From NCBI RefSeq assembly GCF_054482595.1, contig NZ_CM137008.1: a stretch of DNA of 64,000 nucleotides; one strand, written 5' to 3'. Positions within the stretch are counted from its first letter, which is position 1. Every line of letters starts with the position of its first letter. Position numbers and translations under genes: made by a program. Under the pieces are notes generated by a model. It saw nothing but the letters and a program-made list of their open reading frames with translations. It was not told the DNA's origin and ran no database searches. Shown in pieces: positions 2,629 to 58,560 of the stretch.

Positions 2629-5600
2629 TTAGTCGAACGGCGGTGGGGCCAGCACTTCACGATTACCGTTGTGCCCCTGTTCGCTGACAATCCCCTGCGC
2701 TTCCATCTGTTCGATAATACGCGCTGCACGGTTATAACCAATGCGGAACTGACGCTGTACGCCAGAAATTGACGCTTTGCGTTTTTCAGTGACAAACTGC
2801 ACCGCCTGATCGAACAACGGATCCAGTTCTTCAGCGCCATCGAAACCACCCGCACCACCTTCGCTTTCGCTGTCGGAGGTGATGCCATCAACATACTGTG
2901 GGCGACCACGCGCTTTCCAGTCCTGCACCACGGCATGAACTTCCTGATCGCGAACAAAAGCACCATGGACACGTACCGGCAACGTGGAGTTCGGCCCAGA
3001 GTAGAGCATATCCCCCATACCCAGCAGTGATTCCGCGCCAGCCTGATCAAGAATGGTACGTGAGTCAATCTTACTGGATACGGTAAAGGCGATACGGGTC
3101 GGAATATTCGCTTTAATCAGACCAGTAATAACATCAACCGATGGACGCTGAGTTGCCAGTACGAGGTGGATACCCGCGGCACGGGCTTTTTGCGCCAGAC
3201 GTGCTATCAGCTCTTCCACTTTTTTACCTACTGTCATCATCAGGTCGGCAAATTCGTCCACCAACACCACAATGTATGGTTCTTTTTTCAGCACCGGATG
3301 CTGGGCATCCATACTGTCACCCGGCTTCCAGTACGGGTCTGGAATCGGACGCATCATGCGATCGGCTTCAGCAATTTTTTCGTTATAACCCGCCAGATTA
3401 CGCACACCCAGCGCAGACATCAGTTTATACCGACGCTCCATCTCGTTAACACACCAGCGCAGCGCGTTGGCGGCATCTTTCATATCAGTAACGACTTCCG
3501 TTAACAGGTGCGGAATGCCTTCATAAACCGAAAGCTCCAGCATTTTCGGGTCGATCATGATGAAACGCACATCTTCTGGCTGTGCTTTATAAAGCATGCT
3601 CAGGATCATCGCGTTCACACCGACAGATTTACCGGAACCGGTAGTCCCCGCAACCAACAAGTGCGGCATTTTCGCCAGATCGGCAACCACCGGCTCACCG
3701 GCGATATCTTTACCCAGCACCACGGTTAATGGCGACGGATTATCGCGGAATTTGGCGTTATCCAAAACTTCGCGCAGATAAACGGTTTGTCGTTTTTTAT
3801 TTGGTAACTCCAGACCTACATAGGGTTTGCCAGGAATAACTTCAACGACACGCACCGCCACCGTCGAAAGTGAACGGGCAAGGTCCCGTGACAAGTTAGA
3901 AATGCGCGCCGCTTTTACGCCAGGAGCCAGGTTAAGTTCAAAGCGAGTGATAACTGGCCCCGGAGAGTAATTGACGACATCGGCTTTAATACGGAAATCA
4001 GCCAGACGCGCTTCCACCAGACGCGCCATTTGTTCAAGCGCAAAGGTATCTACCGGCTCCACTTCGCTCGGCGGCGGTGTCAGCAAATCCAGAGAAGGCA
4101 GCGGCGTCGTCGGTTTGTGCAACGGACGGCTGTCGCCATTACGCATCAACAGCGGATGAAGCAGGGTATCCTGCGGCTGTGGCGCAACTGGCTGTTGTGG
4201 CTGCTGATACTGCGGCTGCGGTGCAACCGGTTGTTGCGGCTGTTGATACTGCGGCTGCGGCGCAACTGGTTGTTGCGGCTGTTGATACTGCGGCTGCGGT
4301 GCAACCGGCTGTTGCGGCTGCTGATATTGCTGCTGTGGCGCAACCGGCTGTTGTGGCTGCTGATACTGCTGCTGCGGTGCAACCGGCTGTTGCGGCTGCT
4401 GATACTGCGGCTGCGGTGCAACCGGTTGTTGCGGCTGCTGTACAGGTTCAACAATTGGCGTAAACAACGGTTCGTGTGGACCATCATCCAGCAACGCTTT
4501 CATTGGCGAAAATTCAAAATCATCCAGCGAGAACGGATTCGCCCCAGCCGGTTGTTCGCCGGAATAACGTTGTTGTTGAGTTTGCGCAAACTGACGAGCC
4601 AGTTCAGCCTCTGCCGCAGCATCTGCATCTTCTGCGTTTACGGGCACATCATGTTGATACTGTTCGCCATAGCGTTGCTGCTGTGTCTGGGCGAACTGAC
4701 GTGCCAGTTCATCCTGCTGCATCGCATCGATTTCATCATCGTTGTACTGATCGCCAGAATCGTACTGATTGCGCTGGGCTTCACGGGCTTTTTCTTCCGC
4801 CGCACGCTGTGAGGGCAGCTTAATACCGTAAGACGCCAATTCACGACGAGTTGGCACGCGGATACGTTTCGGTCGTGGCAACTGCGGGCCAATCCCCTCT
4901 TTGACCTGCGGACGCGGTCCACCGCTATTTGCCAGACTGAAGACTGGCGCGGCAACGGTTGCGGCAGCCCCCGTCGCCAGTGTCGCTTTTTTCACGCCAG
5001 ATGCCAGCGGAGAAACAGCGGCAGCGGCTTCTACTGGAGGTACTGCTGCAACAGAAGGTGCTTTCAGCGAAGATTTGATCGGTTCTGGTTCTTTAACCGG
5101 TTCTGGAATCGGTTGATACCAGGCCGCAAGTTGTTCACGTTCACGGGCTCGCTTCTCTTCCACTTCTTCAAAGTAGTAAAGCGGCGGACGCGCGGGTTTT
5201 GTCTCTTCTACAACGGGTTCAGGCTCCACAACAGGCTGCTGTTCAACAGGTTGCGGCTGTTGGTACAACGGCTCCTGAGCGGCTGGCTGCTGATAAGTTT
5301 GCTCAGTCTGGTATGTAGACTGTGGAGCAAAAGTGGATTGCTGCTCTTCGGCTTGCCAGGCGTTACCTGCCACCGGTTGTTCTGGCGCAGGGGCATAATA
5401 CGGCTGTTGCGCAGGCTGTTCCGGCGCAGTTGCGTAATACGGTTGCTGAACAGGTTGTTCCGCCGCAGGAGCGTAGTAAGGTTGTTGCGCAGGTTGTTCA
5501 GCTGCAGGTGCATAATACGGCTGCTGCGGCTGTACTGGTTGTTGCAGCGGCTCATTATATTGCACTGCAGGCTGCGCATATTGTGACTGCTGTGGGTAAC

Positions 5601-12485: not shown

Positions 12486-12526
12486 GCTATTATTGAACGA
12501 TCCGACTTGCGTGGAGTTTTGCGGTC

Positions 12527-13231
12527 ATGCGCCTGGTTCAGCTTTCTCGCCATTCAATAGCCTTCCCTTCCCCGGAAGGCGCATTACGTGAGCCTAACGG
12601 CCTGCTGGCACTTGGGGGCGATCTTAGCCCTGCGCGCCTGTTAATGGCTTACCAGCGTGGTATTTTTCCGTGGTTTTCTCCGGGCGACCCCATCCTCTGG
12701 TGGTCGCCCGATCCCCGCGCGGTGCTATGGCCAGAATCACTGCATATCAGCCGTAGTATGAAGCGATTTCATAAACGCTCGCCCTATCGTGTCACGATGA
12801 ATTACGCTTTTGGTCAGGTCATTGAAGGCTGTGCCAGCGATCGCGAAGAAGGAACCTGGATCACGCGTGGCGTGGTCGAAGCCTACCATCGCCTTCACGA
12901 ACTCGGTCATGCCCACTCCATTGAAGTCTGGCGTGAAGATGAGCTTGTCGGCGGTATGTACGGCGTGGCCCAGGGAACGCTATTTTGTGGCGAGTCCATG
13001 TTCAGCCGGATGGAAAATGCGTCTAAAACGGCGCTTCTGGTATTCTGTGAGGAATTTATCGGTCATGGCGGTAAGCTTATCGACTGCCAGGTCCTTAACG
13101 ATCACACAGCATCGCTTGGTGCCTGCGAAATTCCCCGTCGGGATTATCTGAATTATCTCAATCAAATGCGCCTCGGACGATTGCCGAATAATTTCTGGGT
13201 ACCACGATGCTTGTTTTCACCACAAGAATGA
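12527..13231 (+). CDS. aat: Leucyl/phenylalanyl-tRNA--protein transferase
   Basis: 234-aa ORF matching Aat; conserved position between cydC and infA. Confidence 0.93.
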
Positions 13232-13512
13232 ATGTTTTCGGCACATTTCTCCCCAGAGTGTTATAATTGCGGTCGCAGAGTTGGTTACGCTCATTACCCC
13301 GCTGCCGATAAGGAATTTTTCGCGTCAGGTAACGCCCATCGTTTATCTCACCGCTCCCTTATACGTTGCGCTTTTGGTGCGGCTTAGCCGTGTGTTTTCG
13401 GGGTAATGTGCCGAACCTGTTTGTTGCGATTTAGCGCGCAAATCTTTACTTATTTACAGAACTTCGGCATTATCTTGCCGGTTCAAATTACGGTAGTGAT
13501 ACCCCAGAGGAT

Positions 13513-55990: not shown

Positions 55991-57676
55991 GTGAATATAA
56001 ACGTCGCCGAATTGTTAAATGGGAATTACATTCTGTTATTATTTGTGGTCCTCGCGCTTGGGCTATGTCTCGGAAAGTTACGACTTGGTTCGATCCAACT
56101 GGGTAATTCCATTGGCGTTTTAGTCGTATCGCTGTTATTAGGCCAACAACATTTCAGCATTAACACCGATGCGCTTAATCTTGGCTTTATGCTGTTTATT
56201 TTCTGCGTCGGGGTCGAAGCCGGACCGAACTTTTTTTCCATTTTTTTTCGCGATGGGAAAAATTACCTAATGTTAGCACTGGTGATGGTTGGCAGTGCGC
56301 TGGTGATCGCCTTAGGGTTAGGTAAGCTGTTTGGCTGGGATATTGGCCTGACGGCCGGTATGTTAGCAGGCTCTATGACGTCGACACCGGTTCTGGTCGG
56401 TGCTGGCGATACACTGCGTCATTCCGGCATGGAAAGCAGGCAGCTCTCACTGGCACTGGATAATCTGAGCCTCGGATATGCCTTAACCTATTTAATCGGT
56501 CTGGTGAGTTTGATTGTTGGTGCGCGTTACTTGCCGAAATTGCAGCATCAGGACTTACAGACCAGCGCCCAGCAAATCGCCCGCGAACGTGGCCTGGACA
56601 CTGATGCCAACCGTAAGGTTTATTTACCGGTGATCCGCGCCTATCGCGTCGGCCCGGAGCTGGTGGCCTGGACCGACGGCAAAAATCTGCGTGAACTGGG
56701 TATTTATCGACAAACCGGCTGCTACATTGAACGTATTCGACGTAACGGGATTCTGGCAAATCCAGACGGTGATGCCGTGCTACAAATGGGCGATGAAATA
56801 GCGTTGGTAGGCTATCCCGACGCCCATGCCCGACTCGATCCCAGCTTCCGTAACGGCAAAGAAGTTTTCGATCGTGACCTTCTCGACATGCGTATCGTCA
56901 CTGAAGAAGTGGTCGTTAAAAACCATAACGCCGTTGGCAAACGTCTCGCACAACTGAAGTTGACCGATCACGGTTGCTTCCTTAACCGCGTTATTCGTAG
57001 CCAGATTGAGATGCCGATAGATGACAACGTCGTGCTTAACAAAGGTGACGTTTTACAAGTCAGCGGCGATGCCCGCCGCGTAAAAACCATCGCCGATCGC
57101 ATCGGCTTTATCTCGATTCACAGCCAGGTCACTGACTTGCTGGCATTCTGCGCCTTCTTTGTTATTGGGCTGATGATCGGGATGATCACATTCCAGTTCA
57201 GCACATTCAGTTTCGGCATGGGGAACGCTGCCGGGTTGTTATTCGCCGGAATTATGCTGGGCTTTATGCGTGCTAACCACCCGACCTTCGGTTACATTCC
57301 GCAGGGTGCATTAAGCATGGTGAAAGAGTTCGGCTTAATGGTGTTTATGGCAGGCGTTGGTCTGAGCGCCGGTAGCGGTATTAATAACGGTCTGGGCGCG
57401 ATTGGCGGTCAGATGTTGATTGCCGGATTGATTGTCAGTCTTGTGCCCGTGGTTATCTGTTTCTTGTTCGGTGCTTATGTATTGCGAATGAACCGCGCAC
57501 TGTTGTTCGGCGCAATGATGGGCGCACGCACCTGCGCGCCGGCAATGGAGATCATCAGTGATACAGCTCGCAGTAACATCCCGGCGCTGGGCTATGCGGG
57601 CACCTACGCAATCGCCAACGTCCTGCTGACGCTGGCAGGGACAATCATCGTCATGGTATGGCCAGGATTAGGATAA
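55991..57676 (+). CDS. ybjL: Putative AAE-family transporter YbjL (with TrkA-C domains)
   Basis: 561-aa [41 protein letters not shown]... Confidence 0.93.
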
Positions 57677-57718
57677 AACTGAAGTTGCCCTGAAAATGAA
57701 ATTTTTTTGCACAACCGC

Positions 57719-57752
57719 AGAACTTTTCCGCAGGGCATCAGTCTTAATTAGT
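57719..57752 (+). promoter_or_regulatory. Sigma-E-type promoter of rybB
   Basis: -35-like aGAACTT and -10-like TCTTA with about 16-bp spacing, ending 6-7 nt before the RybB 5' end; RybB is a known sigma-E regulon member. Confidence 0.6.
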
Positions 57753-57831
57753 GCCACTGCTTTTCTTTGATGTCCCCATTTTGTGGAGCCCATCAACCCC
57801 GCCATTTCGGTTCAAGGTTGGTGGGTTTTTT
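57753..57831 (+). ncRNA. rybB: Hfq-dependent small RNA RybB
   Basis: GCCACTGCTTTTCTTTGATGTCCCCATTTTGTGGAGCCCATCAACCCCGCCATTTCGGTTCAAGGTTGGTGGGTTTTTT: recalled RybB sequence with 5' seed GCCACUGC and terminal hairpin plus U-tail; located beside ybjL as in K-12. Confidence 0.9.
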
Positions 57832-58008
57832 GTTATCTAAATCCCCAAAATCTCCATTCTCTCCCCTGTCCAAAGCCTTATCTGACTGTCCTCTCTTCCA
57901 GAAAATCATTCTTTTTCGTACAAAGAACAAATAGTTATTGAGAAGCTTATTTAAAAACCTGAACAAAATCGGTAATATTCCTGGCTTTGCAATACACAGA
58001 TTTTTTAT

Positions 58009-58560
58009 ATGGATATTAACGAGCTAAAAGAGTGCCTTCATCTGGAAGTCATTGGTAAAAGTAGGAAATTCACATGGCGTAAAGTCATTGTAAGGGCGAT
58101 GAAACATCGGCGCGTTCGTTACTTATTCTGGTGGCGTATCGCTAAATACGGCCATGAGAAAGGTGGTTACTGGCGGAAAATTGCTGGCAAAATTGAGCGA
58201 AAAATCCTTGATAGTTATGACGTTAAAATCCCATTAGTCGTTGATATAGGCAAAGGGTTGGATATTTCATACTTAACGGGAGTTGTTATCGGTCATAACG
58301 TAAAAATTGGTGAGAATTGTTCCATCAAACCCGGCGTAACCATCGGCCTACGTGGCCATTTTGACGAAATGGATATACAGATTGGCAACAATGTCACCAT
58401 TGGTTGCAACGCCTCCATTCTGGGCGGCAAAGTCTATATTGGAGATAACGTCACGATAGGTGCACATGCATTGGTTTTGCATGATATCCCAGAAAACTCC
58501 ATTTTTATCAATAAAATAGAATACGAGATTATCCCGAAAAAAGTTATAGCCGAAATGTGA
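58009..58560 (+). CDS. Hexapeptide-repeat (left-handed beta-helix) O-acetyltransferase, WcaB/CysE-like
   Basis: 183-aa ORF with tandem hexapeptide motifs (IGHNVKIGENCSI, VTIGLRG, IQIGNNVTIGCNASILGGKVYIGDNVTIGAHALV) after a basic helical N-terminus; visibly AT-rich; not expected between rybB and rcdA in K-12. Weak ribosome-binding site, so start uncertain. Confidence 0.7.
   Translation: MDINELKECLHLEVIGKSRKFTWRKVIVRAMKHRRVRYLFWWRIAKYGHEKGGYWRKIAGKIERKILDSYDVKIPLVVDIGKGLDISYLTGVVIGHNVKIGENCSIKPGVTIGLRGHFDEMDIQIGNNVTIGCNASILGGKVYIGDNVTIGAHALVLHDIPENSIFINKIEYEIIPKKVIAEM

Follow-up and report, generated by a model that had tools for sequence, protein, structure and literature searches.

The window analysed here, a 64,000-nt stretch of Escherichia coli DNA (contig NZ_CM137008.1 of RefSeq assembly GCF_054482595.1), carries the gene of the small RNA RybB with a putative acetyltransferase gene close behind it, and the question that this locus raises is whether the two are functionally connected. 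An earlier note, made from the letters of the sequence, had described RybB with a sigma-E-type promoter directly abutting an accessory insertion and had proposed that read-through of the RybB terminator could couple envelope-stress signalling to the inserted gene. The analysis below leads us to a simpler account: a canonical rybB gene and a horizontally acquired single-gene islet very probably stand side by side as two independent things.

The identity of the small RNA was examined by cmscan, which matched Rfam family RF00110 at 57756-57834 on the plus strand with 104.1 bits (E 5e-21; gathering score 40 bits) over model positions 1-79 of 79, and RybB is thus where the earlier note had placed it. 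A permissive Rfam scan of 57600-58700 gave no credible family besides RybB. The first base of the RNA is G57753, 3 nt upstream of the start of the Rfam model, and the RNA begins GCCACTGC. Alignment to K-12 rybB, the check that the earlier note had suggested, gave 81 identical nucleotides out of 82, and from the -35 element through the U-tract the sequence equals that of a K-12-type genome with A57821G as the sole change. The seed GCCACUGC is intact, as had been claimed, and GCCACUGCUUUUCUUUGA at 57753-57770 follows K-12 letter for letter. A pattern search among species representatives found the first 26 nt of RybB as an exact match in at least 120 Enterobacterales genomes. The synteny ybjL - rybB - rcdA is also present in the window. 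By its sequence 57753-57834 is the canonical, already known rybB gene of E. coli, its identity, structure and synteny being shown at that level.

The whole RNA is predicted to fold with -24.6 kcal/mol and a 13-bp terminal stem. Its terminator, a G+C-rich stem of 13 bp followed by U6GUU, has a predicted energy of -21.8 kcal/mol (z -4.4) vs -22.4 kcal/mol in K-12. The difference of 0.6 kcal/mol is the cost of A57821G, which lies in the 3' arm and turns the pair of U57793 with A into a U.G wobble. From this fold the 3' end is a putative Hfq-binding intrinsic terminator with a U-tail. One genome that carries the islet, the IS1-rich, 4.37-Mb CP026786.1, has the extra change G57825T, disrupting one C-G pair in the stem of RybB.

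The range 57719-57831 under study runs from the -35 element up to the final U of the U6 run. The promoter consensus for sigma-E has been given as GGAACTTTT (-35) and GTCAAA (-10), and Salmonella rybB was found by experiment to be strictly sigma-E dependent (PMC1804206). The elements of the window agree with this consensus at 8 of 9 and 4 of 6 positions, respectively; they are spaced 16 nt apart, the -35 being taken as the 7-mer, and G57753 follows the -10 element after 6 nt. We then compared those loci retrieved by the 26-nt RybB 5' pattern (at least 120) that had enough upstream sequence. Across these 114 species-representative Enterobacterales loci GAACTTT and AGTC..AA reach at least 90% conservation and the neighbouring bases are variable, which is good comparative evidence that the promoter is functional. 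Motif match, spacing and conservation together bear out the sigma-E-like -35/-10 of the earlier note. By analogy with the near-identical genes of K-12 and Salmonella, whose published sigma-E dependence and targets we adopt here, rybB of the window strain would be sigma-E dependent too: its promoter would drive an Hfq-binding sRNA of about 80 nt, the 5' end of which would pair with outer-membrane-protein mRNAs and which would end at the strong intrinsic terminator.

Table 1. Features of the rybB locus, in coordinates of the window.
Feature	Position	Strand	Basis
ybjL, aspartate:alanine antiporter family, 561 aa	55991..57676	+	Pfam Asp-Al_Ex, TrkA_C; RefSeq annotation
Sigma-E-type -35, aGAACTTTT	57719..57727	+	8/9 vs consensus GGAACTTTT
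Sigma-E-type -10, GTCTTA	57741..57746	+	4/6 vs consensus GTCAAA
RybB sRNA	57753..57834	+	Rfam RF00110, predicted fold
RybB 5' seed GCCACUGCUUUUCUUUGA	57753-57770	+	Read from sequence
RybB terminator stem	57786-57828	+	Predicted fold
attB core TGGGTTTTTTGTT, unoccupied, 13 nt	57822..57834	+	Duplicated at CX08 prophage junctions; attR of 100181
RybB U-tail	57826-57834	+	Predicted fold
ATCTAAA host spacer between att core and islet	57835..57841	+	Alignment; also in K-12 and O103:H2-type genomes
Accessory islet, 778 bp	57842..58619		Comparison with K-12-type genomes
Hexapeptide-repeat acetyltransferase, 183 aa (WP_000353913.1)	58009..58560	+	Pfam Hexapep, phrog_2154
rcdA, TetR-family regulator, convergent with rybB	58620..59156	-	Pfam TetR_N, TetR_C_31; RefSeq annotation

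The gene order in the window is ybjL, rybB, the 183-aa ORF, rcdA, ybjJ and ybjI (Table 1; the RefSeq annotation of ybjL and rcdA was taken from the identical locus in strain XH990). In K-12-type genomes the RybB terminator and the stop codon of rcdA are about 20 nt apart, the sequence reading GTTATCTAAAACTTATCTA and then directly CTA, and the islet substitutes for about 9 bp of this compact spacer. On the right the islet ends precisely at the rcdA stop codon, and its left edge lies 10 nt past the U6 run. Since the insert starts 7 nt after the 3' end of RybB, as defined by Rfam, the word abutting in the earlier note is accurate, and the whole of 57842-58619 is absent from K-12-type genomes. When the surroundings of the islet were searched for repeats that could be att-like or target-site duplications, only short ones at chance level turned up, and the stretch 3' of the ORF, folded on both strands, was no more structured than shuffled controls (z about 0). 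The left end of the islet (57841-57858) resembles the last codons of rcdA (58642-58659) in 14 of 18 nt; read on the minus strand it gives ...E-I-L-G-I-stop, to be compared with ...E-E-I-L-R-M... in RcdA. This similarity is probably due to chance, and it could be the trace of a duplicated rcdA end.

The islet was found in 70 of 5426 complete E. coli genomes (1.3%), with 99.5-100% identity, and many of the carriers are O145:H28 STEC. All 70 share the identical left junction, and ybjL-rybB-islet-rcdA are contiguous in 67 of them. The index of a public assembly collection lists the exact acetyltransferase protein in more than 10,000 blocks, and at the ten places inspected there, two small IS-rich genomes included, the context was unchanged every time. 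K-12, E. albertii, E. whittamii, Salmonella arizonae (with the compact spacer) and more than 5350 E. coli genomes lack the islet. Its GC content is 0.41 vs 0.51 in the flanks. Absence from the outgroups, GC contrast and distribution together identify the islet as a derived insertion that was acquired horizontally, as far as such comparisons can tell.

The opposite polarity, an islet ancestral to E. coli and deleted in most lineages, would find some backing in the motif CTTATC, present near 57878 and near 58603 at the two ends of the islet as well as in K-12-type spacers, and in the other genes that occupy the rybB-rcdA spacer of Citrobacter, Kluyvera and Enterobacter. Against it, however, stand the compact spacer of E. 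albertii, E. whittamii and S. arizonae, the low GC, the near identity of the copies among carriers and their small share of the complete genomes. We regard ancestral presence as extremely unlikely and keep to a derived insertion.

The origin of the islet can be narrowed further by the alleles that accompany it. G57821 was present in all 11 islet loci checked; it occurs in about 536 E. coli records (about 10%), some 470 of them without the islet (for example O103:H2 12009 and 118UI), and was not seen among 75 scorable loci of other species. The non-coding ends of the islet had no match in E. coli genomes beyond the 70 carriers, in 50,697 phage records, in IMG/VR (exact 30-mer) or in 120 rybB loci of other species. 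Most likely the islet arose once, on a haplotype with ATCTAAA and the G57821 allele, by insertion 7 bp past the 3' end of RybB into a spacer that is variable among Enterobacterales and adjoins the att site of P2-like phages. It would have spread by descent and by homologous recombination in the flanks.

What the islet encodes was examined with profile and structure searches. The Pfam Hexapep match (PF00132, 53.5 bits against a gathering score of 27) agrees with the putative acetyltransferase gene of the earlier note, and residues 2-177 of the protein matched positions 5-181 of 185 of phrog_2154 (5e-69), a phage protein family of unknown function. The protein fell below every NCBIfam cutoff, with 71.5 bits for cysE TIGR01172 (cutoff 210.65), 44.6 for PRK11132 (cutoff 397) and 81.5 for EpsC (cutoff 150). 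Among solved structures the best matches were CysE proteins (E about 1e-12 over residues 57-165), and in the alignment the Asp-His pair of CysE, which we take to be its catalytic residues, stands opposite Ser-Tyr. Because of these scores and this alignment the RefSeq name "serine acetyltransferase" must be read as generic and not functional. CysE identity was rejected on the same two counts, 71.5 bits against 210.65 and Asp-His replaced by Ser-Tyr. The PADLOC models of defence proteins gave no family at E up to 0.01. An AlphaFold model of the enzyme reached a pLDDT of 69 with a poor LbH part, and a Foldseek search of the PDB with this model returned nothing below E = 2. From the profile matches the 183-aa protein is a soluble hexapeptide-repeat (LbH) acetyltransferase of a phage-associated family.

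The relatives of this protein are found in quite different places. Phage vB_EcoM-613R2 and many phage-plasmids of about 47 kb have copies of 76% identity that adjoin tail-fibre assembly genes. At 54% identity there is a copy within a P2-like tail module, and a 49% identical one immediately follows int in the P2-like phage ESSI2_ev015. Lone genes of about 50% identity occupy chromosomal spacers of Citrobacter and Pseudocitrobacter, the Citrobacter copy (on a metagenome scaffold) being flanked by copA-like and cueR-like genes. Outside the islet cluster no relative exceeded about 80% identity. To judge by these contexts the family behaves as a wandering single-gene unit. Members of it were noticed in Escherichia sp. 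E4930, within a P2-like tail-fibre module, and in Pseudocitrobacter, where one adjoins a fimbrial cluster at which an integrase island inserts. In Intestinirhabdus alba an acetyltransferase of 48% identity lies downstream of rybB (region +280 to +2057), preceded by a 368-aa ORF with long hydrophobic stretches that by eye is likely a membrane protein, and no rcdA homologue was detected there between rybB and ybjJ. The Intestinirhabdus copy may have been acquired independently at the same hotspot, or it may derive from a shared phage source.

Phage-borne hexapeptide-repeat acetyltransferases take part in surface modification, an example being NeuO of prophage CUS-3. From family and context the islet protein most likely serves as an O-acetyltransferase that depends on acetyl-CoA and has a sugar or surface-polysaccharide precursor as its substrate. 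The gene would be an accessory gene of the kind that phages carry ("moron" or conversion genes) and not a serine acetyltransferase of the cysteine pathway. A literature search gave no mention of WP_000353913, or of rybB together with rcdA and an acetyltransferase.

The 3' end of RybB is already published as an att site of P2/186-like (Felsduovirus) phages: such prophages sit in rybB in 109 genomes (hotspot #29; PMC10121019), and an island Kpn38RybB has been described in Klebsiella (PMC4048246). We found the same in strain CX08, where a prophage of about 34 kb separates rybB from rcdA with TGGGTTTTTTGTT at both junctions, and in strain 100181, where TGGGTTTTTTGTT is again present at attR. A search for the E. 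coli locus matched about 1,100 more places than records, an excess that would fit a sizeable minority of genomes in which the locus is split by a large insert. Elsewhere in Enterobacteriaceae the space between rybB and rcdA is taken up by P2-like prophages or, judging by eye from the ORF sequences, by a gene for a short-chain dehydrogenase, an ars operon or an MFS transporter, and this variety across genera makes variability of the flank a general feature. The dehydrogenase-like gene seems to be cut short in C. gillenii and Kluyvera genomosp. 3, the ars operon is an arsRBC-like one in Enterobacter, and the MFS-like transporter belongs to Cedecea.

Such a setting raises the possibility that the islet is what was left of a P2-like (Felsduovirus) prophage once integrated in rybB, which carried the acetyltransferase in a cargo slot between int and att and later lost everything else by deletion. 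Besides the att site itself, this history would be in keeping with the variable cargo that these phages carry between int and the rcdA-side junction, with the family member directly behind int in ESSI2_ev015 and the one downstream of rybB in Intestinirhabdus alba, with the AT-richness of the islet, and with strain 100181, where the islet gene comes right after int and attR in unchanged orientation; a phage attP arm reading ...GTTATCTAAATCCCCAAAATC... would support it. Yet the islet is on the bacterial side of the att core, with the core and the host-type ATCTAAA coming first. The islet holds one ORF only; integrase and phage structural genes are absent, and TGGGTTTTTTGTT does not recur behind it. 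Its non-coding ends occur in no phage or viral contig, and the closest phage homologues, at 76% protein identity, lie in tail-fibre modules away from int. A prophage past of this kind seems rather unlikely to us. Since the islet is located outside the att core, we did not take a simple prophage remnant as the main explanation and retain the single-gene insertion next to an empty att site.

Several observations on the att region stand apart from this choice. The 11 nt 3' of the att core (57835-57845) are unusually polymorphic in E. coli: GCCTGAAATTT, which is also the phage attP arm, is found in ST131, O157:H7, E. albertii, E. whittamii and Citrobacter, ATCTAAAA[C/T]TT in K-12, O103:H2 and the window, and GCCTATAATTT in 118UI. 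These spacer alleles differ by 2-4 changes in 11 nt, whereas the adjacent flanks are about 99% identical. One possible source of the polymorphism is exchange with the integrating phage, or escape from it. A57821G adjoins the att core. On the phage side of attR the equivalent base is G in strain 100181 (position 4000) and A in CX08 (position 34456), so that the alleles of host and phage may co-vary. That side of attR (CX08 34441-34466; 100181 3984-4009) has a 9-bp hairpin of its own in which the shared core supplies the 3' arm and the U-tail, so that a terminator stands at the prophage end as well as at RybB. The CX08 prophage encodes a TIR-domain protein in its tail region (12515-13315) and, between int and attR (33113-34341), a Panacea-domain protein and a hypothetical gene; all of these are likely defence or toxin-antitoxin cargo. 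The record NZ_JBRERE010000002.1 ("plasmid pE100181_149") contains the chromosomal genes rcdA, ybjJ, ybjI and mdfA together with the P2-like prophage, and is probably a misassigned chromosomal contig.

We now turn to the coupling itself. Its premise is a leaky RybB terminator, from which a sigma-E-driven read-through mRNA would carry the acetyltransferase ORF and envelope stress would switch the gene on. The layout lends itself to this idea: the ATG of the ORF lies 174 nt past the terminator in the orientation of rybB, a sigma-70 consensus scan of 57500-58900 found no promoter-like site, upstream of the ORF or elsewhere in that range, and the wobble A57821G is linked to the islet at all loci checked. 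Read-through is documented at the terminators of other Hfq-binding sRNAs (SgrS, RyhB; PMC4509938), but the same paper reports that termination at such terminators is enhanced and not relaxed under stress. Moreover, the wobble costs little and leaves the 13-bp stem and the U6 tail in place, and the G allele is carried by the some 470 records that have no islet. No Shine-Dalgarno sequence can be recognised before the ATG when the sequence is read directly. A terminator scan of 57500-58900 gave a single weak terminator-like site, on the minus strand inside the ORF.

Two further observations bear on the same point. In strain 100181 a complete P2/186-like prophage (more than 25 kb read) and a second hairpin-plus-U terminator separate rybB from the islet, showing that the islet is kept without adjacency to rybB, and homologues of the ORF sit at unrelated loci. 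The points against read-through are stronger than the points for it, and we consider sigma-E-driven read-through very unlikely as the way in which the gene is expressed. Its most specific form, that in islet lineages (O145:H28 STEC) some sigma-E-driven transcription passes the wobble-weakened terminator and expresses a surface-polysaccharide-modifying acetyltransferase, strikes us as highly improbable. If it were true, a foreign gene would have come under envelope-stress control without a promoter of its own, a neat case of borrowing the promoter of an sRNA; the sequence evidence leans the other way. Judging from the 100181 prophage and from the homologues elsewhere, any expression of the islet gene is probably independent of rybB.

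Taken together our results point to an islet that is real but ordinary, next to a textbook RybB and its promoter, and the idea of regulatory coupling is unsupported. With P2-like integration at the RybB 3' end already published, the finding in itself matters little. What is useful are the exact junctions, the frequency of 1.3% with enrichment in O145:H28, the origin of the gene in a phage family and the recognition that its label "serine acetyltransferase" is misleading.

The locus can finally be set against the systems that it most resembles. With the Felsduovirus hotspot it shares the intact 13-nt core TGGGTTTTTTGTT, but the site in the window is empty and the islet begins 7 bp outside the core. 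Like CysE, the islet protein has an N-terminal helical domain followed by an LbH domain, but it is about 90 residues shorter. It differs from NeuO and NeuO-like enzymes in that NeuO was not among its solved-structure hits and in that the islet copy is chromosomal with no prophage attached, whereas the likeness lies in a small soluble LbH acetyltransferase whose family members are lone accessory genes in or near prophage tail and att regions. The RybB gene differs from that of K-12 by the wobble SNP and by the spacer that the islet has expanded, and it shares with RybB of K-12 and Salmonella the seed, the terminator architecture, the promoter motifs and its place after ybjL and convergent with rcdA.
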